64,000 nt of DNA from an uncultured Gammaproteobacteria bacterium (GCA_964360965.1 CAYHYM010000004.1:660-64659); one strand, 5' to 3'. Positions 2,618 to 40,365 are shown, counted from the stretch's first letter. The notes: generated from the letters alone by a model not told the origin. Program-made: numbers and translations.

Positions 2618-2641
2618 CCACAATTAGTTACATAATTGTGG
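2618..2641. promoter_or_regulatory. 9-bp perfect inverted repeat ccacaatta-N6-taattgtgg just upstream of the first T4SS-like gene
   Basis: Direct reading; lies 14 nt upstream of the ATG at 2655. Confidence 0.4.
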
Positions 2642-2654
2642 TAAGCTAGATTTA

Positions 2655-3893
2655 ATGTCCAAATCACTATTAAATATCTCCACATCTTTGTTAATTATCC
2701 TGGGGTTGTTTATTTATTACGCACCAAATATTGAGGCTGCTTCTGGCACGTGTATCAATAAAGATAGAAAGGGGGTAATTATTTCTACGGCCATTTGGCC
2801 AGATGATGTTCTTATTAATTTGTCAGTAAACGTCACTGTTCAATTTACCAATCAAACAGTTGCGGGTAAATACTTTGTTATCCTAAGCGACGGTAAACCA
2901 ATTGGCGCCCAAGACTACTCATCTCAAATAGTTGATCTTACCACAAGCCAGCTACGAAATGGAATAGAAGTGACTTTCCCTATTGGTCCTGTTACTGAGT
3001 ATAGAGATTCTTACTACGTCAAACTACAAAGAGAGGGGTTTGGAGATATTTGTGAGCCTAGTAATTTAGGCACTATTGCAGTAGCTAACATCAGCGATAA
3101 TAAGCTAAAAAAAACTCAATGTTCCATCTCTGTTCCCGGCAATATTCAAATAGGTGATAACTTAACCATTAAATATAGCGTTTCCAATCCTCCCTCTGAA
3201 AATTCCAGATTTATTCCCCTAATTTTTAAAACAAGTAATTTTGCCAAAATGCCTACAGGTGTTTATAGAGCAACCGGGGCTCCCTTGGGAGATTTTGCCA
3301 ATACCTTAATCACCCCAAAATACTTAAAACAAGACCAGGTAACAGATCTAACCTTTCCCACTGATACAGGCACATTTAATCAAATTGAAAATTTTACAGC
3401 AGCGATGGCAGTTCAGGATGACTCCTCGGTACCAGGAGATGAAGCTAGATTATATATTTGTAAATCCGCTAATTTTAGTACCAGTAATAACCCTACGACT
3501 CCTGCCGGAACTCCTGCTACATCTGCACCTGCTGGTTTTCCAAAAGCCGGTACTGGATCAGGGGGAGGAGAAAAATGTACTTCAGGGTTTTTAGATGAAA
3601 AAAATAATCCTGTGCCGGCAATAGATACTGCCATAGGCTGTGTGCCCACAGAACCGGTGGCTTTTATCAAGGCTTTTTTGCGATTTACCCTGGCCACTTT
3701 TGGAGGGATAGCCTTTTTAATCATGGTAATGGGAGTATTTCGGATGATCACCTCTGCCGGTAACCCTGATGCGCTGAAAGCAGGACAGGAAATGTTTACC
3801 AGTGCCATTATTGGCATTTTATTTATTATCTTTTCCGTACTGCTTTTACAAATAATAGGAGTTGGTATACTAAATATACCTGGATTCAGATGA
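2655..3893 (+). CDS. secreted protein with C-terminal T4SS pilin-like (VirB2/TrbC-like) hydrophobic module
   Basis: Signal peptide; the C-terminal 80 aa (FRMITSAGNPDALKAGQEMFTSAIIGILFIIF) are paralogous to the downstream small pilin-like ORFs. Confidence 0.45.
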   Translation: MSKSLLNISTSLLIILGLFIYYAPNIEAASGTCINKDRKGVIISTAIWPDDVLINLSVNVTVQFTNQTVAGKYFVILSDGKPIGAQDYSSQIVDLTTSQLRNGIEVTFPIGPVTEYRDSYYVKLQREGFGDICEPSNLGTIAVANISDNKLKKTQCSISVPGNIQIGDNLTIKYSVSNPPSENSRFIPLIFKTSNFAKMPTGVYRATGAPLGDFANTLITPKYLKQDQVTDLTFPTDTGTFNQIENFTAAMAVQDDSSVPGDEARLYICKSANFSTSNNPTTPAGTPATSAPAGFPKAGTGSGGGEKCTSGFLDEKNNPVPAIDTAIGCVPTEPVAFIKAFLRFTLATFGGIAFLIMVMGVFRMITSAGNPDALKAGQEMFTSAIIGILFIIFSVLLLQIIGVGILNIPGFR

Positions 3894-4561
3894 AACTAAT
3901 CGCCCAACAAATTCCCGGAATTCCATATTTATTAAACTGTAACCCGGTCAATCAAACAGGCTGTCCACCTGGCCAGAGCGTGCCCAGGACTGGTGCTTTA
4001 AATTTTACCAGCCTGGGGGATTTTATCTTCGGACTCTTAAACATTGTCTTTTCCATTGCCGTATTTTTGGCCTTTTTCTGGCTGGTGTGGGGAGCTTTTC
4101 AATATATTACCTCAGGAGGGAATAAGGAAAGATTGGCTGCTGCCAGGGCCAGAATCACCTGGGCCATTGTGGGATTACTGCTGGTGGCAGTTTCCTTTCT
4201 AGTAGCCCAATTTTTGGCTCAGGTTTTACCTCCCCAAAAAGGAACACCAATTTTGTCAGTACCGACCGCTTATGCTGCTGTTGATATTGGCAAGGAGTAT
4301 GGTTTTGGAGATATCCGGTCTTTAGGAGAAGGGGTCACTAAACTGGTTGCTCCCACCTTTTCCATTGCCACCACGGTGGTGATAATATATTTTTTAATGG
4401 GAGCTTTTAAATTTTTAACCTCAGGAGGGAATAAGGAGGCCACTGCTTCTGCCCGTGGTATGATTACCCATGCCATTGTGGGATTTATTATTTTAATGTT
4501 TGCTTTTTTGATTTTACAATTTATTCCACAAGCTTTTGGCTTAAATTTTTCGTTGTTTTAA
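3890..4561 (+). CDS. VirB2/TrbC-like pilin, tandem-duplicated module
   Basis: Two copies of the motif W.GAF.(Y/F)(I/L)TSGGNKE...AR..IT.AIVG, each followed by a hydrophobic helix; start overlaps the upstream stop (ATGA). Confidence 0.55.
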   Translation: MKLIAQQIPGIPYLLNCNPVNQTGCPPGQSVPRTGALNFTSLGDFIFGLLNIVFSIAVFLAFFWLVWGAFQYITSGGNKERLAAARARITWAIVGLLLVAVSFLVAQFLAQVLPPQKGTPILSVPTAYAAVDIGKEYGFGDIRSLGEGVTKLVAPTFSIATTVVIIYFLMGAFKFLTSGGNKEATASARGMITHAIVGFIILMFAFLILQFIPQAFGLNFSLF

Positions 4562-5055
4562 TGATAAAAAAAATAGTTATTGTAATTTTAATAAATGTCT
4601 TTTTGGGATTAGGGACATCTTCTGTCTATGCTCTTCATGTGCCACCCGGCGCTACTTGTAATCCAATAGACCCGGCAGATCATTGTAACATTGGCTATTC
4701 TTGTCTACCGGTAACAGGTACTCCGGGCCACCAATGCTTAAGACCCCAATCCACAGACACCATTGGTAAAATCAGTGCACCATTAGCCATACAAGCTTTG
4801 GGTATAGGTAATATAGGCATCAGCAAATTTTTAAATAATTTAGTCACCCTAATTTATATTTTAGCCACTGTTGTTTTAGTCTTTATGTTTTTATGGGGAT
4901 CTTTGGAGTGGTTAACATCAGGAGGGGATAAGGAAGCTGTAGGAAGAGCCAGAGGCAGGATTATTAATGCCCTGGTGGGAATTATTCTTTTCGGGGTGGC
5001 TTATGCCATACTGCGGCTGTTGGGAACATTTACCGGCTTTACATTTTTCCAATAA
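4561..5055 (+). CDS. VirB2/TrbC-like pilin paralog
   Basis: Signal peptide plus LWGSLEWLTSGGDKEAVGRARGRIINALVGIILFGVAYAIL motif. Confidence 0.55.
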   Translation: MIKKIVIVILINVFLGLGTSSVYALHVPPGATCNPIDPADHCNIGYSCLPVTGTPGHQCLRPQSTDTIGKISAPLAIQALGIGNIGISKFLNNLVTLIYILATVVLVFMFLWGSLEWLTSGGDKEAVGRARGRIINALVGIILFGVAYAILRLLGTFTGFTFFQ

Positions 5056-5056
5056 A

Positions 5057-5806
5057 TTAAGAACCTCCTCCATAACGAGGTCCTTGCCCTCCACCGCCGC
5101 CTCTTCTACCCTTTCCGAAGAATCTGATAACTCTGATAACCAGGTTCATCAAAAATACCGGTATTGCTATAACTGCTACCAAACTGCCTATTACAGCAAG
5201 AATGGCGCCTGCGGATATACCTACAGTCTTTCCTATCTCCACCACCATCTTGGGTACACCACCTGGTGAGTCAGGTGCTATTTTACGGCCTTCTATATCT
5301 TTGATAAATTCAGCCTCATACTCTTTAGCTTCTTGCTCTGTCTCCTGTCTTGCCCGCTCAAATGCCTTTTTATTTTCTTCCTGCTGTTTTGCATCAGCCT
5401 GAGCAGTTTTTTTTGATTGTTCCCAGATTACTCGCTGCTCAGGGGTCATTTTTTCCAGTAGCTCCATTTCATATGGAGTGAGTGTGGGAACCCTTTCAGG
5501 AGTGGTTACCCCTGGCCTTTCTGTTGCTCTGAGTGTGGAAGTTTTTGTTTCCACTATCTGAACACCAGCTGGTTGTTTTGGCGCCTCTCCCACTACTGGT
5601 GCGGGTTGGCTGGTAGTGTCAGCACTAAGATCCAGACAGGCAGCTGAGAAAAATACCAAACCCACCATGGGAGCTAATAAGGCTACTCTTGAAGCCGGGA
5701 GCGCTTTTCTGGTTCTTACCACAATATCATCTGCCGCTACTATGGCGCTGGATGGTTCTATCAACTCATTTAAAACTGCTGGTTCTGTTTCTTTCATATC
5801 ATCCAT
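5057..5806 (-). CDS. membrane-anchored hypothetical protein with Gly-rich C-terminal tail
   Basis: ORF with an N-terminal and a C-terminal TM helix, a charged coiled-coil middle, and a GGGGGQG tail; no recognisable catalytic motif. Confidence 0.35.
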   Translation of the reverse strand: MDDMKETEPAVLNELIEPSSAIVAADDIVVRTRKALPASRVALLAPMVGLVFFSAACLDLSADTTSQPAPVVGEAPKQPAGVQIVETKTSTLRATERPGVTTPERVPTLTPYEMELLEKMTPEQRVIWEQSKKTAQADAKQQEENKKAFERARQETEQEAKEYEAEFIKDIEGRKIAPDSPGGVPKMVVEIGKTVGISAGAILAVIGSLVAVIAIPVFLMNLVIRVIRFFGKGRRGGGGGQGPRYGGGS

Positions 5807-6107
5807 TCTTAGGTCCTTTTAAAGTTTCCAGATAATCTTTTTTAAAATTTTCCAATTCATGCAAAATTTTTGTCTGAAGAGATGGAATCAGACTGCCTAA
5901 CATATTAATTATCACCTTACCGTCTTTCTGCTTAGTAATTTTCCCCAGTTGTTCTGTGGTAAGATCAGCGGAAAGCCTTAATAACACATACTCGCCTATT
6001 TTACTGTTTAAATGCTGCCGCATCTTATCTGTCTCCTCTGTTGATTGAGAGACGGTATTAATATTCAAAAAAATAATTGGATCAAAATCTTTTAGACTAA
6101 TCAACAT
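5799..6107 (-). CDS. hypothetical protein
   Basis: 102-aa ORF whose 5' end overlaps the 3' end of the 5057..5806 gene; no recognisable motif. Confidence 0.3.
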   Translation of the reverse strand: MLISLKDFDPIIFLNINTVSQSTEETDKMRQHLNSKIGEYVLLRLSADLTTEQLGKITKQKDGKVIINMLGSLIPSLQTKILHELENFKKDYLETLKGPKNG

Positions 6108-6186
6108 ATTAATCCTATAGATATATTATACCACAAATTTAGCACTTGACAAATAGATAACTTACTGCATATGATAAAATTAAGAT

Positions 6187-6567
6187 ATGAAAAAAGTTGC
6201 CTCAATTTTCTCTGCCTTTGGTTATCTAATATCTGCAGGAGCAGCTTTTGCTCAAACCATTACCATTGAAAGACCTGAGATCAGCGGCAAAAAGGTGGGC
6301 TTTTTAGATGTCAACCAATTCATCAAAAATGGGGTGACCCTGGCTTTTATTATTGCCCTGGTGATTGTTTTTATTATGCTGGTGTGGGGGTCAATTCAGT
6401 GGATTTTTTCCGGAGGATCAAAGGAGAATCTGGAGGCTGCCAGAAATAGAATCATTCACGCTCTGGTAGGCTTGGCTATTTTGGCGGTGGCTTTTGCCAT
6501 TATTCAGCTTTTTGCCACCTTTGTGGGTGTTAATCTACTTGATCTAAAAGTACCATCTCCAATATAA
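6187..6567 (+). CDS. VirB2/TrbC-like pilin paralog
   Basis: Signal peptide plus MLVWGSIQWIFSGGSKENLEAARNRIIHALVGLAILAVAFAII motif. Confidence 0.55.
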   Translation: MKKVASIFSAFGYLISAGAAFAQTITIERPEISGKKVGFLDVNQFIKNGVTLAFIIALVIVFIMLVWGSIQWIFSGGSKENLEAARNRIIHALVGLAILAVAFAIIQLFATFVGVNLLDLKVPSPI

Positions 6568-6576
6568 TTTTAGAAT

Positions 6577-6861
6577 ATGGGGCCACCTGAAGCTGGTTTA
6601 ACTCAAATTGAAGACACTTTTAAAAATGCCATCTCTGTTTCAGTGGGACTGGCTTTTGTGGCTTTGGTGGTGGTGCTGATCTGGGCAGGCATTAAATTTT
6701 TAACCTCAGGAGGGGAGGCTAAAGCCCTACAGTCTGCCACACAGACCGTCACCTGGGCTCTTCTGGGAATTTTATTTCTGGCCATAGCCTGGCTGGTGTT
6801 GCTGCTGATTAAAATCTTTACCGGAATAGATGTGACAACTTTTAACATTCAGGTTTTATAG
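6577..6861 (+). CDS. VirB2/TrbC-like pilin paralog (divergent)
   Basis: LIWAGIKFLTSGGEAKALQSATQTVTWALLGILFLAIAWLV motif. Confidence 0.5.
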   Translation: MGPPEAGLTQIEDTFKNAISVSVGLAFVALVVVLIWAGIKFLTSGGEAKALQSATQTVTWALLGILFLAIAWLVLLLIKIFTGIDVTTFNIQVL

Positions 6862-6909
6862 TATCAACGTATGTTGCAAAATAACCATTAGTTGTTTTAA
6901 ACTTAAATT

Positions 6910-8505
6910 ATGTCTGTTAAGAAATTAATCTTCAGCTTAGCGGTATCTTTGGCATTTCTTTTGCTACCTGCTACCAACCACCAGCTATTAACTATCTCTG
7001 CTCAAACTACCACTTCCTCTGCCACTGCCTCTACAGCCATCAAACCATTGGGCATAGTCAGCTTTCAATCCCCACAATATATCAACCTGCAAATGATAAA
7101 CCTGATGCACTCTGCCAGTTGCTTGATAAGCGGCATCTCTCCCATAAACCAACCTTGCGTGGAATACATTGGGGGTATCCCCGTACTTTCCTCTGTTAAC
7201 CTATCAGGCGGTATGTTGGGTACTATCAGCACAGGATTGGCACTACTTTATACAAATCCTCCCATCAAAAGCATTGAATACCTGGGTAGTATAGGGGACA
7301 GTTTAAGTTTTTTTGAAGTTAAACAGGCCCAAGCTCAGGTGGGAGGCTCTGGCAGCAAGGTATTATCTCCGGTTTTGGACCTTTGGAAAGTTTCAAGGAA
7401 CATTGCCTATCTAACTATAATGATCATTTTTGTGGTGATTGGGGTGATGGTGATGTTTAGGAACAGAATCAATCCTCAAACAGTCATCACAGTCCAGGCA
7501 GCCCTGCCAGGCCTGGTGATTGGACTCATACTTATTACTTTCAGTTATTTTTTGGCAGCACTATTGGCAGATATTGCTTTTGTGGGCTCAAATATAGTCG
7601 GCCATTATTTTACCATTGCCCAAAGTCAAGCCATCTCTGTCAAAGGACCGGTGAACACTCTAGAAAACGAAAATGTCTTAAGTATCTTTAGCAGATTTTT
7701 TAACACCACCTCCAAAGAACAGTTTATTCCCCTATTTGACACCATCTTTAAAAACCTGCCCACACCAGCCGCTTTAGATATTTTGACTCCTGCCCGTATG
7801 TTTACTTATGTTATTGTGGGAATGACTAACCAAATATTAACCTTAACTGGTATATCCTCTATACCTGTAGCAGGCACTGCTACAGGTATATTTACAGGTA
7901 TTAAAGGACTAACAGATGCACAGGCTACAGGATCATTTTTAGTATGGCTGATCTTAATACTAGTACTGATGTATTCCATGTTTAGAGTACTTTATCGTTT
8001 GATAATCAGTTATTTAACCATCATCTTTTTAACCATCACCGCCCCTTTTCATTTTTTAATTGCCGCTTTCCCGGGAAGACAAGAGGTGGTGACTGTTTGG
8101 GCCAGAAACATGCTGGCCAATATCCTGGTTTTTCCCGGAGTGTTGGCCATATTTTATTTTGCCGGCTATCTGATGGGGCCCACATTATTAACAAGCGCCG
8201 GTGGAGCAGGAGGATTAACTCTTAGTGATCTACTCAATATTAACAATCAATTGGGTGTGGCAGGAGCAAAAACACTGCCGCTTTTGGGAGGATTGGATCA
8301 AACAGTGATCCAGTTAATTCTGGCTTATGGCGCGCTGATTGCCGCACCAGCCATTCCGGAAATTATCATCAATGCCATAGGTAAAGTTGGTCCTGCCGGA
8401 CAGACCATTGGTAGAGAGGTGACTGGAGCTATACAAAGCGGCAGAGGATACCTGCAACAAGGAGCCGGGGCAATTGGTGGAGCCTTGGGAGGCGGTAGAC
8501 GTTAA
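6910..8505 (+). CDS. VirB6/TrbL-like polytopic membrane protein
   Basis: Signal peptide, then at least six hydrophobic helices and a Gly-rich C-terminus; position next to the pilin genes in a T4SS-like locus. Confidence 0.45.
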   Translation: MSVKKLIFSLAVSLAFLLLPATNHQLLTISAQTTTSSATASTAIKPLGIVSFQSPQYINLQMINLMHSASCLISGISPINQPCVEYIGGIPVLSSVNLSGGMLGTISTGLALLYTNPPIKSIEYLGSIGDSLSFFEVKQAQAQVGGSGSKVLSPVLDLWKVSRNIAYLTIMIIFVVIGVMVMFRNRINPQTVITVQAALPGLVIGLILITFSYFLAALLADIAFVGSNIVGHYFTIAQSQAISVKGPVNTLENENVLSIFSRFFNTTSKEQFIPLFDTIFKNLPTPAALDILTPARMFTYVIVGMTNQILTLTGISSIPVAGTATGIFTGIKGLTDAQATGSFLVWLILILVLMYSMFRVLYRLIISYLTIIFLTITAPFHFLIAAFPGRQEVVTVWARNMLANILVFPGVLAIFYFAGYLMGPTLLTSAGGAGGLTLSDLLNINNQLGVAGAKTLPLLGGLDQTVIQLILAYGALIAAPAIPEIIINAIGKVGPAGQTIGREVTGAIQSGRGYLQQGAGAIGGALGGGRR

Positions 8506-10196
8506 AAGCTCTTAATCACTTTTTGCCAAATAAATTTCCCCATTCCCTTAAACAAGAATCCATCAACCAACCATACCCCGTTAACAAAAAAGTTTGTTCC
8601 TGCAGAAGCATTAAAATGTCTCATTAAATCCTCGGCTTGATCCTCACCAGTAGCTCCCTTTGTCTCATTAATTGCCCAGTAAAATTGTGGTCTACCCCAT
8701 CTATTATAAGATTTGGTGAATTCATTGCGAAGTTTTAGTACTCTTTGGCCCTCATCTGTATTAACATAGTTTAAAATCTGTCCCAGAACAAAGGCTCTGA
8801 CTTTTTGTGGTTCTGCAGCACCATAATAGCTCAGAGAATTAAAATTACCAGCAAGCTCATTAAATGATTTTACTATATCAGGCATATTCTTTTCAGGATC
8901 ATCCAAAGCTCTAGCAGGTGATATCAGGGGACTGTTAATAAATCCACCAAGAAGTTTATCTACTAAATCGTTTGTTCCATTAACAATTACAGACCAGCCG
9001 TAAAATGAGGTGTCCGGATTATCTTTAAGTTTATCGCGTAACTCAAGCAGATTTTTACACTTGAGAAAATAGCTTAAAGATCTGGCATGGGTATCAAAGG
9101 CCCCAATCAACTGTCTGGCTTGAACTGCAGAATGTTCTCTACTTGCCAAAAACTCCGGGGTAAATATCAATTTGGTCCAAAGATAGGGGGAATTGCCTGA
9201 TAACTGAGAATATTTACTCCTATCACTACCACTATATTCAAAGTGGTACGCTGGATTTGCCCATTGATTAACCCACTCTCTCCAGTACAGATTATTTGTC
9301 ATATCTATTTTTTGACCCTTAAATACATTATTTAAAATTTGCTGTTCAACTAATTCTCCATCTTTTGTCAGGGGACCAGTAAAACGGGTGATGTCTGCGG
9401 TGGCTATATATAACCTGTAAGTTAACACAGCAGCCAATTCAGCTTGTTTTTTATCTAAACTTTGATTTTTTTGCAGTTGTTCTGATATTTGGTTTATTAT
9501 CATCTCTTTTTCTTTATCACTTTTTTTATAACTTCTAAAAACCTGGCCATTACTTTTTTCCACCCACTCAACTCCCTCTCTGACTCCCTCTATATCCCAT
9601 GTCCAATTAAATGCCTCTCTAAATATAACAGCTGCCACCAATTCTGCAAATTTTGGTCCAGCTCCAAAATTAACAGTCCACTCTGCACCACTCAGACATG
9701 CTCTAACCATGAACATCTTTTGTGCTTTTTCTATTTCCTCTATTTCTTTTTCACCAGCACCTGATCCCATTTTAGCACTCACCAACGTATCAAATAATTC
9801 CTGATATTTATTTATCTCAGCCAGAGGTGACATGTCCTTCGCGCCTACAATATTAGGCATACGGTCTTCTAATCTAATGATTAAAGCATCAGCTATTTTC
9901 TTAATTTGCTCTGGTGTCTGATCTGGTCTAAATGGACCAAGACCTGCAAACATCTCTGCCCCACCTTCCATCCTGGGTATTCTGGCTACTTCTTGACCGG
10001 TTTGTGGATCAAAATAAACATGGTACTTCCCTTCTACTTTAGAAGGATAATCTACCTGGGGATTTAGTTCTGGAGAACGAGTCGCCCCCACAACACTTTT
10101 TCCTGCTTCAGGAACCACCTCTTTTACTATTGGAGTAGGATTAGGTGATTCATTTTCCGGACTATCTGATCCCTCTGCCATAATCTCTCTAGCCAT
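8502..10196 (-). CDS. hypothetical protein (564 aa), embedded in T4SS-like locus
   Basis: Long ORF with no recognisable Walker or other catalytic motifs; overlaps the VirB6-like gene end by 4 nt. Confidence 0.4.
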   Translation of the reverse strand: MAREIMAEGSDSPENESPNPTPIVKEVVPEAGKSVVGATRSPELNPQVDYPSKVEGKYHVYFDPQTGQEVARIPRMEGGAEMFAGLGPFRPDQTPEQIKKIADALIIRLEDRMPNIVGAKDMSPLAEINKYQELFDTLVSAKMGSGAGEKEIEEIEKAQKMFMVRACLSGAEWTVNFGAGPKFAELVAAVIFREAFNWTWDIEGVREGVEWVEKSNGQVFRSYKKSDKEKEMIINQISEQLQKNQSLDKKQAELAAVLTYRLYIATADITRFTGPLTKDGELVEQQILNNVFKGQKIDMTNNLYWREWVNQWANPAYHFEYSGSDRSKYSQLSGNSPYLWTKLIFTPEFLASREHSAVQARQLIGAFDTHARSLSYFLKCKNLLELRDKLKDNPDTSFYGWSVIVNGTNDLVDKLLGGFINSPLISPARALDDPEKNMPDIVKSFNELAGNFNSLSYYGAAEPQKVRAFVLGQILNYVNTDEGQRVLKLRNEFTKSYNRWGRPQFYWAINETKGATGEDQAEDLMRHFNASAGTNFFVNGVWLVDGFLFKGMGKFIWQKVIKSF

Positions 10197-10232
10197 CTTC
10201 CTTTCCTCCGTCTATAGTATATTATACCATAC

Positions 10233-11096
10233 TTATGGCTTCCAACCGCATTGGGGACAATTGGTTAACTGCCCTGCCTGAATTTTTTTCACTTCTTCAT
10301 CATTGGCCACCCAAGAACATATGTTACAACAAATCTCAGGACAGTTCTCTGAGGAGTTGGAGTGGGCCAAAAAGGCCTTAAAAGCAGTTAATCCATCCAT
10401 TCTAATGGGACAGCTGATAACCACACCCTGTCCAAACATATCTCTTACTTGTTCTGCATTAAAAAAGCTATCATAGATCCTCTCAGCTTGTTCCAAAGCT
10501 TTTTCTTGATCTTTTAAATCCTGACCTGTTTTTATCTTTTCCCAAATCTCCGGAGCTACAATTAACTCTTTGAGGGTGTCTATCCAATCCCCGGCGCTGA
10601 AAATTAAAGGAGTAGATCTGACTGAATTTAAGCTCAACAAAAGAGGCCTATTTTGACTTCGCTCAGCCAAAGCTTGAGCCCGCTCCAAACAATCCTCATA
10701 TCTTAAGTTTAATATGATGGCTCTGTTAAGCAACCTTTTTTGACTGTTTGGGTGTAAAATTTCACTAATAATTAGTTTAGATGTGGGATAATATACTGAG
10801 TCCTGAGGACTGATCCAAACCGCTGCACCTGCCTCACTATCCCTAAACCATCTATTAATAAAATCAAAAGCCTGACCTTCTAATTGACCCACCAAATTAT
10901 CTCTTTTAATAATACTGGCAACTTTACATTCCGCGGTTGGGGAATATAAATCACCATCTTTATCTTGCACAAAACAGTAAGCATCGGGAGATCTTCTTGA
11001 TTCCTGGAGGCAGGAGGTTATCTCCGGGATCGCTTGTGTTCTATTATCTTTCCAGGAAGGAGCGAAATCTTTAATTAATGTATCAGCTTCAAGCAT
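10233..11096 (-). CDS. hypothetical protein with C-terminal Cys-rich zinc-ribbon-like motif
   Basis: C-terminal CPEICCNICSW...CPQCGW; otherwise no recognisable domain. Confidence 0.4.
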   Translation of the reverse strand: MLEADTLIKDFAPSWKDNRTQAIPEITSCLQESRRSPDAYCFVQDKDGDLYSPTAECKVASIIKRDNLVGQLEGQAFDFINRWFRDSEAGAAVWISPQDSVYYPTSKLIISEILHPNSQKRLLNRAIILNLRYEDCLERAQALAERSQNRPLLLSLNSVRSTPLIFSAGDWIDTLKELIVAPEIWEKIKTGQDLKDQEKALEQAERIYDSFFNAEQVRDMFGQGVVISCPIRMDGLTAFKAFLAHSNSSENCPEICCNICSWVANDEEVKKIQAGQLTNCPQCGWKP

Positions 11097-11100
11097 GTTA

Positions 11101-11160
11101 GCGTCCTGCGACGCACCAGACAGTGCATCGTCATGAACCTTACATGGTTCGTCACCGCTT
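11101..11160. repeat. GC-rich element in the intergenic region between divergent T4SS-locus genes
   Basis: gcgtcctgcgacgcaccagacagtgcatcgtcatgaacc... shares the tcctgcgac and gtcat motifs of family 1. Confidence 0.5.
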
Positions 11161-11258
11161 AGTCAAGATATCAATCATAAGTTATTAGTTTAAAACTGAT
11201 TGTCATAGATTGCCCTATAATGATACTTTTTTAGGCTCTTGCACAGTACTTTTTCACA

Positions 11259-12266
11259 TTGTATGATCGTGTGAGTATGGAACCGCATCCCATTCCCCAA
11301 AATGTCACCTCGTTTGAGTTTCATCTGGTGGGTGACATGACCTTAAAACAATTTATGTTTTTATCATCAGGTTTGGGGGTATCTTATCTGTTATTTGTTT
11401 TTCTCTCTCCCCAAAACCCGTTTCTGGCCTATCCTTTAATTCTGCTGTTTTCCTTTTTAGGAGTGGCTTTTGCTTTTATGGGCATTGCTGACCGGTCTTT
11501 AGATCATTGGCTTTGGGTTTTCATCAAAGCAGTTTTCTCCCCCACCAAAAGAGTCTGGGGAAAGGCAGGTAAATCGTATGCTCAAAATAACCTGTTTTCC
11601 CAAAGGAGCGCTTTTTTTAACCAGGTAGTCCAAACATCATCCTCCCCTTTTGAGCCAATAACCTCTCCTGTTGCTCAAACAAATGTCCAGCCCCTGCCCA
11701 CAGAAGAGGAGCTGCAAAAAACAGTGACTTTGGCCAGAGAGGCCCAAAGTTTGCAGACTAGAATTATTGAATCAGAAAGACAGCTGGAAAGCATCAAGGT
11801 CACTCCCCAAAATATTTCACCCCAGCAAATTGAGGCAACCTTATCAACCTTACAAAAACTGGTCACTGAAACTTCCGGTATTAAAGAACAACTACTCAGA
11901 GCCACTCACCAAAAAGAGCAGCCAAAGCCTTCTGAAGTCAAAATCACTCCCGCCTCTTTTCAAAGACCAATACAGGCGGTGCTAACTTCCCTGCCCAATG
12001 TGATAAATGGTGTTGTCAAAGATGCTTTGGGCAATTTTTTGGAAGGGGTGGTGGTGGTAATTTATAACAAAGAAGGCCTGCCAGTCAGAGCCTTAAAAAC
12101 CAATAAACTGGGTCAGTTCTCAGGCTCCACCCCCTTGCCAAACAACAGTTACAGAATTGAACTGGAAAAGGATGATCTGTTATTTGATATTTTGCAAATA
12201 GATTTAACAGGCCTGGTTTTACCTGCCATGGAAATTTTATCTAAAAAAAGGGTTTTTCAGACATGA
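11259..12266 (+). CDS. PrgI/VirB3-like T4SS membrane protein with long C-terminal extension
   Basis: N-terminal FEFHLVGDMTLKQFMFLSSGLGVSYLLFVFL followed by a second TM helix, resembling the PrgI/VirB3 family; directly upstream of VirB4. Confidence 0.45.
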   Translation: MYDRVSMEPHPIPQNVTSFEFHLVGDMTLKQFMFLSSGLGVSYLLFVFLSPQNPFLAYPLILLFSFLGVAFAFMGIADRSLDHWLWVFIKAVFSPTKRVWGKAGKSYAQNNLFSQRSAFFNQVVQTSSSPFEPITSPVAQTNVQPLPTEEELQKTVTLAREAQSLQTRIIESERQLESIKVTPQNISPQQIEATLSTLQKLVTETSGIKEQLLRATHQKEQPKPSEVKITPASFQRPIQAVLTSLPNVINGVVKDALGNFLEGVVVVIYNKEGLPVRALKTNKLGQFSGSTPLPNNSYRIELEKDDLLFDILQIDLTGLVLPAMEILSKKRVFQT

Positions 12267-12982
12267 ATACCACCCAGCAACATCTTCAGATGGAGGATAT
12301 AAAAGATGATCTGATGATTTTGAAAAATGGCGGAGCGGCTTTGATTTTACAAAGCTCAGCTTTAAATTTCGGGCTGTTATCAGAGGTTGAACAACACTCA
12401 GTGGTGTTGTCTTTTGCCCAGATGCTCAATTCCCTGTCTTTTCCCATCCAGATTATGATTTATTCCCAAAGGCTCAATATTAACTCATATCTTCATTTGT
12501 TGGAGCGAGCCCGAACAATGCAGAGGAATCCCCTTCTTTCTCAAATGATTGACCGTTATAAAAACTTTGTGACTCAGGTTATTAAAGAAAATGATGTTTT
12601 GGATAAAAAATTTTATGTCATAGCCTATACCTCTTCTTTGGAGATGGGATTTGGTTTTAAAAATAAGGAGGCAAGATTAAAAAGAGCTCAAGCCATACTT
12701 TGGCCAAGAAGGGATCAGCTGATAAGGCAACTGGCCCGAGTGGGGCTAAAAGCAAACCAGCTGACCAGCCTGGAAATGCTGCAGCTTTTATATGATATTT
12801 ATAACGGGGCGCAGCAGGATGTTCTACAAATTCCTCCTGTCAAACTTTCTCCCCCTCCACCTCCCCCAAACCCACCCCGGCCAAATCCAGTTCAAACAGC
12901 AGCTGCGCCACCTTCGCAAACTATTATAAATCAACCTAAAAATCACCCTTTTGTGGTGGAGGAACTGGAGGATAATGTTTAA
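12263..12982 (+). CDS. VirB4-like ATPase, N-terminal domain (separate ORF or frameshifted fragment)
   Basis: Resembles the CagE/TrbE/VirB4 N-terminal domain; Pro-rich C-terminal tail; overlaps the next ORF (ATGTTTAA start/stop overlap). Confidence 0.4.
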   Translation: MNTTQQHLQMEDIKDDLMILKNGGAALILQSSALNFGLLSEVEQHSVVLSFAQMLNSLSFPIQIMIYSQRLNINSYLHLLERARTMQRNPLLSQMIDRYKNFVTQVIKENDVLDKKFYVIAYTSSLEMGFGFKNKEARLKRAQAILWPRRDQLIRQLARVGLKANQLTSLEMLQLLYDIYNGAQQDVLQIPPVKLSPPPPPPNPPRPNPVQTAAAPPSQTIINQPKNHPFVVEELEDNV

Positions 12983-14705
12983 GGGCACACCCCAATTAAC
13001 CCTGGAGGATATCATCGCCCCCCAAGAACTGGAGATTGATTTTAATCATCTTAAAATCAATGACAGATTTTACCGCACCTATTTTATCTCCAGCTACCCG
13101 CGATTTGTGGAGCCTAACTGGCTGGAACCTTTAATTTCTTTTGACCATTCGCTTTTTATCTCCATGTTTGTCTATCCCACCTCATCCAGGGGGGTGCTGG
13201 ATGATCTACGGCGCAAAATTGCCGAGATGGAAGCCACCATAGAAGGTGATGTTGAGCGTGGACGGGAAATTGATCCAACAGTCAGAGTGGCTTTGGAGGA
13301 TGCCCAGTCTTTACAGGAAGAACTGGTTAGGGGGGTGGAGAGATTTTTCCAGTTTGCCCTCTATATCAGCGTGCCTGCCCAAGATAAGGAGGATTTGCAA
13401 AATACCTGCCAGCTTTTTGAATCCACTGCCTCCTCTTTGTCTTTGAGCGCCCAGCCAGCCAGCCTGCAAATGGAAGATGGCTTTAAATCCAGTCTGCCTT
13501 TGGGATCTGACCTGTTGTATCTGACCCATAATATGGACACCCCAGCTCTCTCCACCACTTTTCCTTTTGCTTCGTCGGAGCTGACAGCCAATGAGGGAGT
13601 GATGTATGGCATCAATGCGCATAATGACTCCCTGATTCTTTTTGACAGGTTTTCTTTAGAGAATGCGAATTCAGTGGTGTTTGCCAAATCCGGCGCGGGA
13701 AAATCATATTTTGTTAAACTGGAAATTTTAAGGTCTTTAATGTTTGGCACGGAAATTTTGGTGATTGATCCTGAGAATGAATATTTAAACCTGTGCCAGG
13801 CAGTGGGAGGCGAATATATTAACTTTTCCGCCACCTCTGCTGTTAAGATCAATCCTTTTGATCTGTCTTTAAGCTTATCTCCTGAGGAAAATGAGCTGGG
13901 CAGAAAGATATTATCTTTGACCGCCTTTTTAAAACTGGTGTTGGGCCAGCTAAACCCCCAGGAGGCGGCCATTTTGGATCGGGCTTTAAAACAAACCTAC
14001 AGGTTAAAAGGCATCACTGATGACCCTAAAACCCAAATTCAGCCCCAGATAAGCACCCCTTTAATGGAGGACCTTTATAAAATACTCATCGGTATTGAAG
14101 AAAAACCGGCTCTGGATCTGGCAGCACGCTTAGAAAGATTTATCAAAGGCTCGCTGACCGGTATTTTCTCCTCTCACTCAAACATCAATCTGTCCTCCTC
14201 TTTCACTGTTTTTTCCATCCGGAATCTGGCAGACCAGCTGCGGCCTTTGGCCATATTTATGATCCTGGAATATATCTGGACTAAAATACGCTCACAGCTT
14301 AAAAAAAGAATCCTGGTGGTTGATGAAGCCTGGTATTTGATGAGAAATGAGGATTCGGCCAATTTTCTGGTGGATATTGCCAAAAGAGCCCGTAAGTATT
14401 TTTTGGGACTGACCACCATCACCCAGGATGTGGAGGATTTTTTAGGTACTGACCGGGGCAAAGAAATCATTGCCAATTCCTCCATTCAGGTACTTCTTAA
14501 ACAAGCCCCATCATCCATTGAAAAAGTGGGGGGGACATTTAATCTGTCAGAGGGAGAAAAAAGGCTGCTTTTATCAGAAGGGGTGGGAGAGGGACTCTTT
14601 TTTGCCGGCAATACTCATGTGGCCATGAGAGTGGTGGCCTCACCAGAAGAACACAAATTAATTACCACCAGTCCGCAGGAAATATTGGCAAGACAAAACA
14701 TTTAG
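12951..14705 (+). CDS. VirB4/TrbE/PrgJ-like T4SS ATPase (C-terminal two-thirds)
   Basis: Walker A AKSGAGKSYF, Walker B LVVDEAWYLM, and the surrounding VirB4-type conserved blocks. Confidence 0.75.
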   Translation: MWWRNWRIMFKGTPQLTLEDIIAPQELEIDFNHLKINDRFYRTYFISSYPRFVEPNWLEPLISFDHSLFISMFVYPTSSRGVLDDLRRKIAEMEATIEGDVERGREIDPTVRVALEDAQSLQEELVRGVERFFQFALYISVPAQDKEDLQNTCQLFESTASSLSLSAQPASLQMEDGFKSSLPLGSDLLYLTHNMDTPALSTTFPFASSELTANEGVMYGINAHNDSLILFDRFSLENANSVVFAKSGAGKSYFVKLEILRSLMFGTEILVIDPENEYLNLCQAVGGEYINFSATSAVKINPFDLSLSLSPEENELGRKILSLTAFLKLVLGQLNPQEAAILDRALKQTYRLKGITDDPKTQIQPQISTPLMEDLYKILIGIEEKPALDLAARLERFIKGSLTGIFSSHSNINLSSSFTVFSIRNLADQLRPLAIFMILEYIWTKIRSQLKKRILVVDEAWYLMRNEDSANFLVDIAKRARKYFLGLTTITQDVEDFLGTDRGKEIIANSSIQVLLKQAPSSIEKVGGTFNLSEGEKRLLLSEGVGEGLFFAGNTHVAMRVVASPEEHKLITTSPQEILARQNI

Positions 14706-14720
14706 TGGTAACCTAAGGTT

Positions 14721-16709
14721 ATGGCTGCCAGAGACACCCAACTTTTTAGACTGCTTTTTGAACCCAATGGAGTGATCGTTCAGTTTTACAAAAATCCCCA
14801 AACAGCTTATGTGGTGGCTGGTGGACGCTATTTTAGTAAAAGAGCTACTCTGAGACTGCTGCGTTTTCTACTACCTGGCTATAGAGTCTATCAAGAGGAT
14901 AATCAGCTGGTTGAACAATTATACAGAAATCAGGCTGTTGATTTTAACATCAAAAGTTTAACATTTTACACACCAGAACCCATCCTATCAGAATTTGCTC
15001 ACAATCAGTTAGAAAAAATAGACCAACTACCTATTGAAGTCAGAGAACAAACTCAAAACCTATGGGCAGAAAGGTGGCAACTACCACAAAACCAAAAAGA
15101 AGTTGATCTTCATTATTTACTGAGACTTCCCCACCGAATCCCCATAATAATAAAAAGATTAATTATCCATAACATCCCCCCATTAAAAGCGTTGAGGTAT
15201 TATCAGGTTAAAGCACAAATTTTTGCCAAAAGACTTCTCAGAAGAGTTATTACAACAAGACTGACTACAGGTTTAATTGGGGCGGGGATAGGGGGTGGTC
15301 TGGCAGGACTACCCGGAGCATTAATGGGGGCTGCTTCAGGGTGGTTTGCTCCCTCTTTTATTGCCGGCGGTGGTGGTAGTTTACTTTTCAGGATAGGTGG
15401 ACTTTTGACGGGTGGGGGCAGCAATATTTTATTGGGGCTGGGTAGATTGGCTCTTGTCTCTTTCCCTGTTACAGCTGTGGTGGTGGCTGTAGGACTGACT
15501 GTATTACTTATTATTGTTGTTATTATTTTACCCACCGCCCAACTAACTCCATCTCCTATTGTCGAAGCTGGATTGGTTGGCAATCTTAACAGTTGCCGGT
15601 TTACCAGGGATGCGGTGTTAAGACCGGTTAAAAGCGCCGGGCTTTTGAAAATTTTTCAAGAGGTAGCTGCTCAATCCGGGGTTCCCGCATCAGTGCTTGC
15701 TTCGGTAGCCATGCATGAAAATCCCATTTTTACATCTTCGGCCGAAGATAGTCACGATGTTTTTGGTAATGTTGGTTTTAGTGGCCTGGATTGTTTACCG
15801 CATTTTCCCACCTCAGATACCGGAGCTTTGGGACTGATGCAGGTACAGCCTCCCAAAAATATTCACGATCAAATCAAGTCAAAAGCAGTACCCTCTTTTG
15901 AAAAAGTAGCAGCTTATTCTGAAACCGGGGTAACAATTGGCGCACAGTTTGTGGGTAAAACTGCAGATTCTCTAACATTTCAGGATTTTTGCGATATTAG
16001 AACCAATATCTACCTGGGGGCTGGAGTTTTAATCAGTAAAAATGGCGGTAAACCACCTGCCACTCCAGATGAGGTGGAGGAAGCTGTCTGCCGTTACTTT
16101 GGAGGAAGCTGTTTTTACCCTCATCCTGTAAGTGGACCGTATCACTATGGTACAGAGGCCAGAAAAGATTTTGACAGCTGCCAGCAATTATTGATAGCTT
16201 CCACTGCTTGCCCGTCACAGGGGGGAAAGATCAAAACACCATCTTATCAAATCAATCCCTCTATTGGCCACTGCAGTCCATTTTATGGAGTATGCCCTAC
16301 CAACAGTCGCAGAGCCAAAGCCATTGATGTGGATACCAGAGGACAAGATATCATCTTTCCCACCATTTTAGGGCAAAAAGTAAGTTGGCAGTACCTAACA
16401 CAGTTCTTGCTTAATAAATCAGGTGATTGTGAACTGGGGCTTTCTTCTTGCGGGATTGGGGTGGTCTTCCAAACCAGTGTGGACACTGATACCTGGGTAC
16501 TACATTTACTTCATCTGGACAGTAACAACACCCTGTCCTTTAAGCCAGGATTATTGGCTGATTCTGGAACGGTTGTTGGTAAAACCATCCCCGGGGTTTT
16601 CCTGCATGTTAACATAGGCAAGAATATTAAAAACCCCGACAGTCCTTCCGGGGGTGATAAAGACTTAGATCCTGGCTGGATAGCGGCAGATTTTATGTGT
16701 AACCAATGA
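14721..16709 (+). CDS. VirB1/PrgK-like cell-wall hydrolase: Gly-rich TM region + lytic transglycosylase (SLT) domain + Cys-rich C-terminal putative peptidase domain
   Basis: SLT motifs AMHEN...GLMQV; Gly-rich membrane segment; C-terminal Cys-rich region with an HLLHLD segment. Confidence 0.55.
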   Translation: MAARDTQLFRLLFEPNGVIVQFYKNPQTAYVVAGGRYFSKRATLRLLRFLLPGYRVYQEDNQLVEQLYRNQAVDFNIKSLTFYTPEPILSEFAHNQLEKIDQLPIEVREQTQNLWAERWQLPQNQKEVDLHYLLRLPHRIPIIIKRLIIHNIPPLKALRYYQVKAQIFAKRLLRRVITTRLTTGLIGAGIGGGLAGLPGALMGAASGWFAPSFIAGGGGSLLFRIGGLLTGGGSNILLGLGRLALVSFPVTAVVVAVGLTVLLIIVVIILPTAQLTPSPIVEAGLVGNLNSCRFTRDAVLRPVKSAGLLKIFQEVAAQSGVPASVLASVAMHENPIFTSSAEDSHDVFGNVGFSGLDCLPHFPTSDTGALGLMQVQPPKNIHDQIKSKAVPSFEKVAAYSETGVTIGAQFVGKTADSLTFQDFCDIRTNIYLGAGVLISKNGGKPPATPDEVEEAVCRYFGGSCFYPHPVSGPYHYGTEARKDFDSCQQLLIASTACPSQGGKIKTPSYQINPSIGHCSPFYGVCPTNSRRAKAIDVDTRGQDIIFPTILGQKVSWQYLTQFLLNKSGDCELGLSSCGIGVVFQTSVDTDTWVLHLLHLDSNNTLSFKPGLLADSGTVVGKTIPGVFLHVNIGKNIKNPDSPSGGDKDLDPGWIAADFMCNQ

Positions 16710-16716
16710 AAAGCCA

Positions 16717-17163
16717 ATGAAAAAAGTAGTTATAGTTTTTATAATCATCTTTGCTATTATATCCATAACCAGAATTATATCCATAAACAGATCTGTTTTT
16801 CTAAAACCAGAACAGCTACCCACTGTTGCACCAGAACAATTAAAAATTATCTCCACCAACCCCCACCCCCTGGATGAGGCAACCATTCTACCCACCCAAA
16901 ATATTGAATTTACTTTTAATAAACCCCTGTTTAGAAGCCAGTTTAAACACAAGTTTGATCCGGACATTGAACATGAGGTAGAAGTTATTGACGGCCGGGA
17001 TAAAGAGTTTGGACAAACCTTCAAAATAGTTTTTAAAAAACCACTGGAACTGGGCCTGGGATATGCTTTATTTGTATTTACCAACACTAAAACAGAGGGG
17101 GGTCTATTTTTAGATAAAGAGTATGTTTTCCATTTTCAAACTATTAAATACAAAGGCTTTTAA
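16717..17163 (+). CDS. small membrane-anchored hypothetical protein
   Basis: N-terminal TM helix, no recognisable motifs. Confidence 0.3.
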   Translation: MKKVVIVFIIIFAIISITRIISINRSVFLKPEQLPTVAPEQLKIISTNPHPLDEATILPTQNIEFTFNKPLFRSQFKHKFDPDIEHEVEVIDGRDKEFGQTFKIVFKKPLELGLGYALFVFTNTKTEGGLFLDKEYVFHFQTIKYKGF

Positions 17164-18335
17164 GAAAGCTTTACCGGCATCAGGATATATTCCAAACCCT
17201 CAACTCCCACCGGCCGGATCAGGCAGGCTGACAAGGATCCGGAAAAATTAAGGGTTATTTTTGAAGAAGGCGCGTTTGATATAGCATCAATTAAAAATCT
17301 GGCATTAAAGGCAATGGTTAACCCGTCACCTGAAACATCAGCTTCAATTTCATTTTGCTGGCTGCCCAACTCTTTAGCAGAGGAGCTCAATACCATTTTA
17401 TCTTTTTCCAGTTTAAGCACAATAATATTGGCTTCGTTTTTGGCAAATACCGCCGCCAGTTTGACAGCCACCAGCATCTGCTCTTTGTTAATGATGGCAG
17501 TTGTTTGAATTTGGGTGGGGATAATCTTCTCCCAGGAGGGGAATTGTCCTTCTATCAACCTTGAGGAAATGATGGTTTCTCCGATATGAAAGATGATCTG
17601 ATTTTGGCTGGAGATGTCTTTAATAACCACCTCATCAACTCCCTCCTCTGAAATGATTTTTAAAACCTCTTCCAAAGTTTTTTTGGGTATCAGGCTTCTA
17701 AACCCTTTGACGGAGTTTATCCCGAGCGGCTTGTCCTGAGATTTGTCGAAGGACTTGTCCTGAGATTTGTCGAAGGAAGTCAAGGGACTCAGGGCAAGCT
17801 GTATTTGCCTGTGGGCCAGCCTAAAACCGTCAGTGGCCACAAAATCAAGCTTACCAGCGCTGCTTTGGGTTAACACTCCTGTTAAGGTAGGCCTTCCTTC
17901 ATCGGTGGCCGCAGCATATAAAATCTGGGCGCAGGAGTTGAGCATATTCTTGGGCAAACTTATGCCTTCACCCCCTCCCACAGGAATTACCGGAAATTCA
18001 GATGAGGATCCTGCTGAAATCGTGGCCTGGAATTTTCCCGCACTAACAATTAAGCTGTTTTGATTTGTGGAAATGTCGATTTTTGGCTCTTTTAAAGAGG
18101 TTACTACCTCGAGGATGGTTTTGGCAGGAACCACAATCTCACCAGGCTCTTGAATTTGCGCCGGGACAAATTTAATCACCCCAATTTCTAAATTGGTGGC
18201 AGATAACCTGACCTTAGACCCCTCTGTGGTAAAAAGGATATTTTCCAGTATAGGGAGTGTTGATCTGATACCTGTTGATCTGACAACTGTTTGTAAGGGT
18301 GGAAGTAAGTCTTGTTGTAATATAGTAAACTTCAT
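17160..18335 (-). CDS. dnaN: DNA polymerase III beta sliding clamp, carrying an in-frame repeat insertion
   Basis: N-terminal MKFTILQQDLL...ATNLE and C-terminal IAFNARFLIDAI motifs; length about 16 aa over typical because of a tandem 24-nt repeat. Confidence 0.85.
   Translation of the reverse strand: MKFTILQQDLLPPLQTVVRSTGIRSTLPILENILFTTEGSKVRLSATNLEIGVIKFVPAQIQEPGEIVVPAKTILEVVTSLKEPKIDISTNQNSLIVSAGKFQATISAGSSSEFPVIPVGGGEGISLPKNMLNSCAQILYAAATDEGRPTLTGVLTQSSAGKLDFVATDGFRLAHRQIQLALSPLTSFDKSQDKSFDKSQDKPLGINSVKGFRSLIPKKTLEEVLKIISEEGVDEVVIKDISSQNQIIFHIGETIISSRLIEGQFPSWEKIIPTQIQTTAIINKEQMLVAVKLAAVFAKNEANIIVLKLEKDKMVLSSSAKELGSQQNEIEADVSGDGLTIAFNARFLIDAISNAPSSKITLNFSGSLSACLIRPVGVEGLEYILMPVKLS
17730..17777. 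repeat. 2 x 24-nt perfect tandem repeat (cttgtcctgagatttgtcgaagga) inside dnaN, within a GC-rich patch about 17715..17800
   Basis: Direct reading; encodes SFDKSQDKSFDKSQDK in frame. Reverse complement carries the CCTTCGAC...CTCAGG core seen in other GC-rich elements. Confidence 0.85.
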
Positions 18336-20276: not shown

Positions 20277-20312
20277 TTATCCACAATTTAATCCACAAGT
20301 GAGTTTTCCACA
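20277..20312. promoter_or_regulatory. cluster of three DnaA boxes upstream of dnaA (TTATCCACA, TAATCCACA, TTTTCCACA)
   Basis: Direct reading at 20277..20285, 20289..20297 and 20304..20312, with a further degenerate box near 20331. Confidence 0.7.
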
Positions 20313-40354: not shown

Positions 40355-40365
40355 TCTAATTTCCT

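Follow-up and report, generated by a model that had tools for sequence, protein, structure and literature searches.

What does a bacterium do with a type IV secretion system (T4SS) when no gene for DNA transfer is found beside it? The question is raised by positions 2,618 to 16,709 of a 64,000-nt stretch of DNA recorded as coming from an uncultured Gammaproteobacteria bacterium (the whole stretch is referred to below as the window). From the sequence alone, an earlier note had read this interval as a Gram-positive-type T4SS with VirB2-like pilins, located next to the replication origin and used for something other than conjugation. The T4SS was confirmed by the analysis described here, and the interpretation was supported: the locus is best described as a chromosomal Patescibacteria-type T4SS of a Daviesbacteria-like bacterium, of MPF-FATA descent (pGO1/pIP501-like) and stripped of its DNA-processing parts. 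To this description we assign a probability of about 0.72.

Within the interval, eleven genes lie on the plus strand, in three blocks (2655-5055, 6187-8505 and 11259-17163), and four genes lie between the blocks on the minus strand (Table 1). All open reading frames (ORFs) named in the earlier note are present where it had placed them; the four minus-strand genes (5057-5806, 5799-6107, 8502-10196 and 10233-11096) had not been listed. For comparison, 79 related loci were taken with 10-kb flanks, as far as contig ends allowed, from GTDB species genomes, that is, species-level Microgenomatia.

The monoderm character of the system is carried by the first three genes of the third block. VirB4 matches the NCBIfam family conju_CD1110 with 378.9 bits (cut-off 325) over positions 184-734 of 752, and is without the first 180 residues or so of a full-length VirB4. 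Its 584-aa ORF also matches P-loop_TraG (E 1.7e-28), AAA_10 and DUF87 in Pfam; Walker A (GAGKS) and Walker B (VVDEAW) motifs can be read in the translation, and the P-loop is intact. By its profile, this ATPase is of the CD1110/MPF-FATA (monoderm) type. The preceding 239-aa protein matches TrsD in NCBIfam (E 8.5e-5, positions 20-200 of 201) and only the N-terminal parts of VirB4 models (15-171 of CD1110, 104-280 of VirB4_plasma), all of these NCBIfam matches being under the family cut-offs; in the source index it is annotated as PF26593, TraC-like. virB4 begins with an ATG at 12975, inside the end of the TrsD-like gene, so that start and stop codons overlap (ATGTTTAA); the two ORFs share 8 nt and are in different frames. 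VirB4 had thus been recognized correctly, but what had been taken for a single gene (12263..14705) consists of two overlapping ORFs. TrsD is the commonest T4SS component in Patescibacteria, and TrsD together with VirB4 represents the pGO1-type arrangement (PMC12102498). The PrgI/VirB3-like protein, also predicted earlier, is above the PF12666 cut-off and shows two transmembrane (TM) helices (residues 31-51 and 53-79); a linker of coiled type comes next, and the C-terminus is a beta domain, CarboxypepD_reg-like, with a weak PF13620 match. It is 47% identical to the PrgI of the related locus L003, and VirB4 is 76% identical to its L003 counterpart. With a CD1110/MPF-FATA VirB4, PrgI and TrsD, the assignment to a Gram-positive type is borne out.

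The first two plus-strand blocks hold an array of VirB2-like pilins. Three genes, corresponding to four modules, are above the PF18895 cut-off, and the 94-aa pilin lies 0.4 bits below it (26.2 bits, cut-off 26.6; E 8.4e-6). A hidden Markov model (HMM) built from these five short modules has a match (E 4.9e-9) in the 412-aa protein, at residues 352-411, and in nothing further among the 552 six-frame ORFs of the window, while scans of the 412-aa protein against Pfam and NCBIfam gave no match. All six modules align as a helix, an [ILF]TSGG.KE loop and a second helix, with corresponding paired hydrophobic segments in hydropathy plots. The VirB2-like array stands, on PF18895 and the local HMM, but its earlier count of five paralogues does not: there are six modules in five genes. 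The secreted 412-aa protein ends in a pilin module, as had been proposed, and the possibility that the pilin-like ORFs would match no T4SS pilin profile did not materialize.

Comparison with two related loci, L003 and L005, allowed the modules to be paired one by one. The 223-aa protein corresponds to L5_8071 (56% identity) and L3_7307 in its first module, and to L5_8427 (62%) and L3_7612 in its second; the 164-aa pilin corresponds to L3_8632 and L5_8678 (39-41%), the 126-aa pilin to L5_9191 (45%) and L3_9197 (39%), and the 94-aa pilin to L5_9614 (66%) and L3_9636 (57%). In both loci the array opens with the positional equivalent of the long pilin. These positional orthologues (39-66% identity) are nearer to each pilin than most of its paralogues, and the six modules form six conserved orthogroups. 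A fixed set of this kind argues for a structured multi-subunit filament, not for copies kept for antigenic variation. The 223-aa gene is a fusion of two pilin genes, which are separate and adjacent in relatives. The same single 223-aa reading frame recurs in a second assembly from the same population. In a sister assembly, the 164-aa pilin was considered as a pseudogene, and this was rejected: the split in L001 (3080-3089, corresponding to window 4793-4809) is made of ten N.

The long pilin is built from a signal peptide, a Cys-bracketed, beta-rich ectodomain of about 270 aa, a Pro/Thr/Gly linker and the C-terminal VirB2-like two-helix module, with hydrophobic segments at residues 2-26, 338-369 and 377-411. 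All of the best 120 homologues listed have the pilin module (median identity 65%), and the ectodomain is common to only 8 of these 120, query included. On such alignments the ectodomain is judged to be hypervariable. Six conserved pilin orthogroups, together with a long pilin of this kind, strengthen the earlier idea of a composite filament or adhesin.

The 531-aa protein encoded after the pilins had been called VirB6-like. It has no Pfam or NCBIfam match, and only its predicted structure allowed an assignment; its 303 homologues, mostly from Daviesbacteria, are all "hypothetical" and without Pfam domains. When the AlphaFold2 (AF2) model (predicted local distance difference test score, pLDDT, 69.9) was compared with the PDB by Foldseek, ranks 1, 2, 4 and 5 were taken by chains of the R388 stalk (TrwJ/VirB5-TrwI/VirB6), with E-values of 0.11-0.66, nothing attaining 0.001, and TrwI/VirB6 is the best natural structural match. 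A sequence profile of the family, run against PDB chains, found no VirB6 and nothing relevant. Genomic position adds weight to the assignment: pilin modules lie directly upstream of this gene in 74 of the 79 related loci, and VirB6 is the pilus assembly base, proposed to recruit and assemble VirB2 (PMC9259494). The protein is probably a VirB6 platform, short of proof. The polytopic topology and the structural match speak for the earlier assignment, on moderate evidence, but a Pfam or NCBIfam profile match does not accompany them.

Directly after virB4, here and in L047, L054 and L061, a 662-aa protein is encoded for which the predicted structure was again the only guide, since it has no Pfam, NCBIfam or PDB sequence match. 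A cytoplasmic N-terminal region of about 235 aa is followed by one TM segment (residues 235-282), a lysozyme/SLT-like domain and an M23/LytM-like domain. The best Foldseek match in the PDB of the AF2 model of residues 280-662 (pLDDT 87.5) is phi29 gp13 (3csq_A; 385 alignment columns, E 4.2e-4, probability 0.99), a phage tail protein and two-domain enzyme, lysozyme-like and M23. Some thirty M23 structures follow with probabilities of 0.85-1.0, ShyA, Csd3, LytM and lysostaphin among them (0.96-1.0). Sequence profiles were less telling. Run against the PDB, the full-length profile gave only low-complexity artefacts (huntingtin, L19), that of the SLT-like domain nothing relevant, and that of the M23 domain only sub-threshold M23 matches (SpoIIQ 0.06, 6ik4 0.08, 5kqb 0.23), below artefacts from designed repeats.

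Conserved residues are found in both domains of the protein. The central domain is common to 25 homologues, and their C-terminal domain is variable, with CHAP in one; Pfam scans of 24 homologues gave weak SLT matches in 6, CHAP in one and M23 in one. In the SLT-like domain E333 (in MHE[SN]) and the TGALG.MQ core of GALGLMQ are invariant, and Y.YG is also kept. In the M23-like domain, an alignment of 15 proteins shows invariant His, Asp, His and His (here H517, D536, H598 and H629). The HxH site, His-x-His in 13 of the 15, reads F627-L-H629 here (window 16599-16607); its first His is replaced by Phe627, and by Tyr in the nearest homologue, and the H...D spacing is non-canonical. The gp13/M23 fold and the single TM segment point to a membrane-anchored dual hydrolase, lysozyme-like and M23, resembling PrgK and with the architecture of phi29 gp13; its activity is predicted. 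Of the earlier description as a PrgK/VirB1-like dual hydrolase, the likeness to PrgK and the SLT-like and M23 folds remain, but there is no CHAP domain and no Pfam match of the protein's own. In PrgK of pCF10, too, a muramidase of SLT type is joined to a LytM domain that is degenerate (PMC11323569).

These parts occur together in relatives. In L003 and L005 the order is SpoIID gene, long pilin, pilins, VirB6-like gene and large minus-strand gene; the L003 flank reaches further and takes in, in this order, PrgI, the TraC-like gene, VirB4 and the beginning of a gene for 724 aa. Within the reach of their flanks, the 79 loci repeat the full order, which runs from SpoIID through the long pilin, the other pilins, the VirB6-like gene, two minus-strand genes, PrgI, TrsD and VirB4 to the hydrolase. 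Exactly six pilin modules are present in 40 of the 79, mostly with one ORF of at least 250 aa bearing a pilin module; PrgI-TrsD-VirB4 come next, in the same orientation, in every locus whose 10-kb flank reaches them, and dnaN neighbours the locus wherever the flank extends far enough. The synteny comparison suggested earlier thus gave a conserved gene order.

This conservation bears on whether one system is present or two. The two-helix proteins might not be pilins at all, and the PrgI-TrsD-VirB4-hydrolase block might be a minimal T4SS of its own: 2.7-9 kb of opposite-strand genes part the two blocks, no solved pilin matches the modules in sequence, and in a 2025 survey of the phylum a pilin gene was near virB4 in only 1,135 of the 1,948 assemblies having both. 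We consider this very unlikely. Order and orientation of both blocks are constant in the 31-36 of the 79 loci whose flank reaches the ATPase block, the modules match PF18895, and the pilin block adjoins a protein with the pilus assembly base VirB6 as best natural structural match. Moreover, a series of pilins is included in the T4SS cluster of Southlakia (genes SEML1_0006-0019), and both the T4SS and these pilins are essential there for epibiotic growth (PMC10633639).

As to DNA transfer, no relaxase, VirD4/TcpA coupling protein, VirB11 or integrase was found among the window ORFs of at least 170 aa, and no tRNA gene or Rfam match in the 64-kb window; integrase and tRNA are therefore absent as signs of element borders, while direct-repeat borders were not searched for. 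The earlier statement that VirD4, relaxase and VirB11 are missing holds within the window. It had also been said that a nearby relaxase and coupling protein, within borders of an integrative conjugative element (ICE), would make the locus an ordinary ICE; neither of the two proteins was found, nor an integrase or a tRNA. The non-conjugative reading, derived here from absence in a 64-kb contig, agrees with the published conclusion for the class (PMC12102498, PMC10633639).

An ordinary or decaying ICE, located near the origin by chance, would share with this locus a VirB4, TrsD, PrgI and hydrolase of conjugative monoderm type, and relaxases do occur in a few Patescibacteria. Besides the missing relaxase, coupling protein, integrase and tRNA, it is contradicted by intact ORFs and an intact VirB4 P-loop, by an unremarkable base composition, and by an order and content that recur across the 79 species-level genomes flanked by the same housekeeping genes (SpoIID, in 37 loci, and dnaN); an ICE is hardly credible here. 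A recently acquired island was rejected as well, given the unremarkable composition (locus G+C 0.38-0.43, resembling the remainder of the window) and the conserved synteny. Recurring gene order, similarity to orthologues above that to paralogues, the 40 six-module loci and the unremarkable G+C argue for a chromosomal, vertically kept system.

A mechanism can be proposed for a T4SS thus stripped of DNA-processing parts. VirB4, with the TrsD-like piece and PrgI, would energise the extraction of pilins from the membrane, and the VirB6-like protein would be the base on which, as in R388, they are stacked to form a filament or conduit. Like PrgK, the hydrolase would make local openings in the peptidoglycan of its own cell. 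Since the N-terminus of VirB2-type pilins faces outward, the variable ectodomain of the long pilin would lie outside the filament, shown on its surface as a host-binding part. If the essential T4SS of Southlakia epibionticum is a guide, the machine would serve host-cell contact and transfer to or from the host, not conjugation. High gene dosage may result from the location beside oriC.

Import of DNA would be another use. A T4SS taking up environmental or host DNA, like Helicobacter ComB or Sulfolobales Ced, could feed a cell unable to make nucleotides; the lack of relaxase and coupling protein would fit import, VirB4 matches the CedB model (E 1.5e-14, though this is generic ATPase similarity far under the cut-off), and T4SS loci of the ABY1 class adjoin comF, recG and radA. 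No competence or recombination genes are near the present locus. In Southlakia, moreover, comEC deletion abolishes competence and leaves viability, whereas the T4SS is essential, so that uptake via ComEC is not the essential role of the T4SS; competence there is conferred by type IV pili, not by the T4SS. DNA uptake is on balance improbable.

Several points weigh against a host-directed Patescibacteria-type T4SS. The pilins match PF18895 only, and neither the classical TrbC/VirB2 family (PF04956) nor any solved pilin sequence; a sequence-profile search of PDB chains with the modules found nothing relevant. A VirB8-like component was not found in Pfam and NCBIfam profile scans of the locus. No pilus has been observed for any member of the class, and function in Microgenomatia is extrapolated, by analogy, from Saccharibacteria. 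The M23 domain has no His at the first HxH position and may be inactive, in this resembling the LytM domain of PrgK. Finally, the analysis covers one contig (about 64.8 kb), so that a distant coupling protein or relaxase could still exist; in Patescibacteria, homologues of the type IV coupling protein (T4CP) are often encoded far from virB4 (PMC12102498).

The genes between the VirB6-like gene and PrgI belong to the same conserved arrangement. Two soluble minus-strand proteins are conserved in position there, in about 30 related genomes. In relatives, the place of the 564-aa protein is taken by proteins of 560-1675 aa, and a large minus-strand protein occupies it in each of the 36 loci reaching PrgI. 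Its residues 1-94 are common to ten of the 29 other proteins at the position (iterated search), and form an N-terminal module of about 90 aa (MAxxExxMAE ... DP.TGKEVAR...GG). One further protein, that of L061 (576 aa), is related over the whole length. The body has few relatives: out of 1.84 billion representatives, only about 10 clusters are related to it. The idea that the 564-aa protein is a truncated copy of the giant proteins at this position was rejected, residues 1-94 alone being in common. The family of the 287-aa protein counts 31 members and occupies this place in 31 loci, the relatives having 290-530 aa; S96, C229 and C252 are invariant, C260, C280 and C283 nearly so. Neither family has a match in Pfam, NCBIfam or specific PDB sequences, the zinc-ribbon family finding only generic zinc ribbons in the PDB, and scans of 30 and 32 members of both gave no consistent family.

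A more far-reaching proposal would combine these elements: the six pilin orthogroups would form one heteromeric filament on a divergent VirB6, the ectodomain of the long pilin would be a swappable host-recognition adhesin, and the two soluble proteins would be dedicated substrate(s) and an adaptor replacing the coupling protein. The substrate and adaptor part draws on the 90-aa N-terminal module, present in about a third of the proteins at the position and fused to a variable body of 0.5-1.6 kaa, and on the zinc-ribbon protein. As a whole this proposal is improbable; if true, it would make the ectodomain the adhesin missing from the 2025 survey.

The two minus-strand genes that interrupt the pilin array behave differently from the two between the VirB6-like gene and PrgI. 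The 249-aa and 102-aa proteins have no significant Pfam or NCBIfam match (TolA, E 0.004 for the former, is far under cut-off) and no BLAST match in L003 or L005, and the 102-aa protein is present in one of the 79 loci; their sequences are not conserved in relatives. At the other end, the 148-aa protein closing the third block matches nothing in Pfam or NCBIfam, and is also found before dnaN in L059.

Divergent from the pilin array, the minus strand of 125-2424 encodes a secreted coiled-coil protein with a SpoIID domain and a 184-aa protein with two TM segments. The former is a conserved neighbour in 37 and the latter in 32 of the 79 loci; they may be parts of the system or just conserved genes close to the origin.

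The proximity to the replication origin, also proposed earlier, is borne out by dnaN, dnaA, DnaA boxes and GC skew. Two clusters of DnaA boxes (one perfect box and five with one mismatch) lie around dnaA, 1.7-3 kb from the T4SS locus, and the cumulative GC-skew minimum falls at about 12-18 kb of the window. Wedged between dnaN and dnaA is a gene for an archaeal-type endonuclease resembling Holliday-junction resolvases, with an N-terminal hydrophobic segment. The remaining genes of the window are housekeeping (YidC, polysaccharide synthesis, MetRS, TsaD, GroEL, ribosomal protein L25, TatD and others, including a class I aminoacyl-tRNA synthetase that carries a LeuRS-type editing domain). At 38322-41466, a gene for a 576-aa glutaminase is followed by an asparaginase gene; with an EF-hand-like domain at its N-terminus and ankyrin repeats at its C-terminus, the glutaminase has its domains in the order known from the kidney-type enzyme of eukaryotes.

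ENA contigs obtained from Hainich groundwater (0.1-um fraction, well H51) contain the same sequence, and the nearest named relatives, judged by homologues of the 531-aa protein, are Candidatus Daviesbacteria. The organism is a Daviesbacteria-like (Microgenomatia) groundwater bacterium, one of the ultra-small Patescibacteria. Loci of the Microgenomatia type were also seen (L006, L008, L009, L011 and others) in many metagenome-assembled genomes titled "uncultured Gammaproteobacteria bacterium" or "uncultured Pseudomonadales bacterium"; for carriers of such a locus, the titles of these records are unreliable as taxonomy.

Table 1. Features of the T4SS locus and of the adjoining origin region, in window coordinates.
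Feature	Position	Strand	Basis and remarks
Long pilin, 412 aa	2655..3893	+	Local pilin HMM, C-terminal module
Tandem pilin, 223 aa	3890..4561	+	PF18895 E 1.2e-13; two modules, four hydrophobic helices
Pilin, 164 aa	4561..5055	+	PF18895 E 9.5e-11; signal peptide, Cys-rich N-terminal extension
249-aa protein	5057..5806	-	Two hydrophobic segments; interrupts pilin array
102-aa protein	5799..6107	-	Interrupts pilin array
Pilin, 126 aa	6187..6567	+	PF18895 E 3.3e-8; signal peptide
Pilin, 94 aa	6577..6861	+	Two-helix hairpin alone, without signal peptide
VirB6-like polytopic membrane protein (probable), 531 aa	6910..8505	+	Predicted structure; signal peptide, about six hydrophobic helices
Soluble 564-aa protein	8502..10196	-	No TM segment; convergent with VirB6-like gene
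Soluble 287-aa protein	10233..11096	-	C-terminal Cys cluster (zinc ribbon); divergent from PrgI
PrgI/VirB3-like protein, 335 aa (329 aa with start 11277)	11259..12266	+	PF12666 39.4 bits, cut-off 27
TrsD-like protein, 239 aa	12263..12982	+	Free-standing equivalent of VirB4 N-terminal domain
VirB4 ATPase, 576 aa	12975..14705	+	NCBIfam conju_CD1110
Membrane-anchored dual cell-wall hydrolase (predicted), 662 aa	14721..16709	+	AF2 model, Foldseek, conserved residues
148-aa protein	16717..17163	+	N-terminal TM segment (residues 1-29), beta-rich ectodomain; last gene of plus-strand block
dnaN	17160-18335	-	Pfam DnaN; adjoins T4SS block
Resolvase-like gene	18332-18781	-	Pfam Endonuc_Holl (PF10107)
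dnaA	18936-20267	-	Pfam DnaA
DnaA-box clusters	18911-18950 and 20277-20312		Three boxes each, flanking dnaA

The class to which the locus belongs was published in 2023-2025. In the Southlakia T4SS, Wang et al. (2023) found no recognisable coupling protein or relaxase (PMC10633639). The phylum survey of Quinonero-Coronel et al. (2025) described a distinct VirB4 clade allied to MPF-FATA, with TrsD, PrgI and VirB6 as parts (VirB6 being scarce in Microgenomatia), almost no relaxases, and proximity to dnaA/dnaN; pilin arrays (441, of 2-11 genes each) were abundant in Microgenomatia, homologues of VirB1 showed no high association with virB4 in most classes, and 22.6% of the VirB3 homologues of Microgenomatia were associated with it (PMC12102498). 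Six divergent pilins, and the idea of the pilus as conduit, also appear in PMC12857230; a new type of T4SS with six pilins is how the system is classed in a 2025 review, which speculates on a pilus conduit. The present locus is a well-preserved further member of this class, correctly rediscovered, and not a new system. What is new here is a VirB6 candidate in Microgenomatia, the six pilin orthogroups, the long pilin with its hypervariable ectodomain, and the two conserved soluble proteins.

The T4SS of Patescibacteria is the only one known to be essential to its owner, a picture that the locus leaves unchanged. It offers candidates for the gaps in Microgenomatia: probably a divergent VirB6 family (303 matches), a hydrolase joining lysozyme-like and M23 domains as counterpart of VirB1/PrgK, a variable ectodomain anchored by a pilin as possible adhesin, and two conserved soluble proteins as possible cargo or adaptor.

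With the other T4SSs of the Patescibacteria clade, the locus shares a monoderm-type VirB4, an adjacent TrsD, PrgI/VirB3, a divergent array of VirB2-like pilins, and a cluster without relaxase or coupling protein next to dnaA/dnaN. Southlakia has six pilins and this locus six modules, and in both, peptidase and lysozyme functions come right after virB4. Compared with the surveyed Microgenomatia, VirB6-like, VirB3 and VirB1-type parts are all present and linked here. Differences from the clade lie in the predicted fusion of lysozyme-like and M23 domains in one membrane-anchored protein, in the fusion of two pilin genes, in a first pilin with a large hypervariable ectodomain, and in the two conserved soluble proteins inside the locus.

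The conjugative MPF-FATA systems of pGO1, pSK41 and pIP501 (TrsD/TraD with TrsE/TraE) have in the same way a separate small homologue of the VirB4 N-terminus beside VirB4, and MPF-FATA systems likewise a VirB3-like protein and a membrane-anchored cell-wall hydrolase. The present locus differs from them by being without T4CP, relaxase and oriT, and without a VirB8-like profile match, whereas it has the VirB2-like pilins that Gram-positive conjugation systems lack. PrgK (pCF10, Enterococcus faecalis) is similarly membrane-anchored and T4SS-encoded, and joins a lysozyme/SLT-type domain to a degenerate LytM/M23 domain; the domain order is LytM, SLT, CHAP in PrgK, but SLT-like, M23 here, with no CHAP. 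Unlike PrgK, the 662-aa protein has the cytoplasmic N-terminal region of about 235 aa; the protein is recognised by no Pfam model, and phi29 gp13 is its nearest solved two-domain architecture. With the MPF-T systems, R388 Trw and Agrobacterium VirB, the locus shares two-helix pilins encoded beside a polytopic TrwI/VirB6-like protein, without detectable sequence similarity to VirB6 or to the classical TrbC/VirB2 family. It is also without the VirB5 tip protein and the outer-membrane core (VirB7/9/10) of MPF-T, and where those systems have one pilin, it has six different ones.

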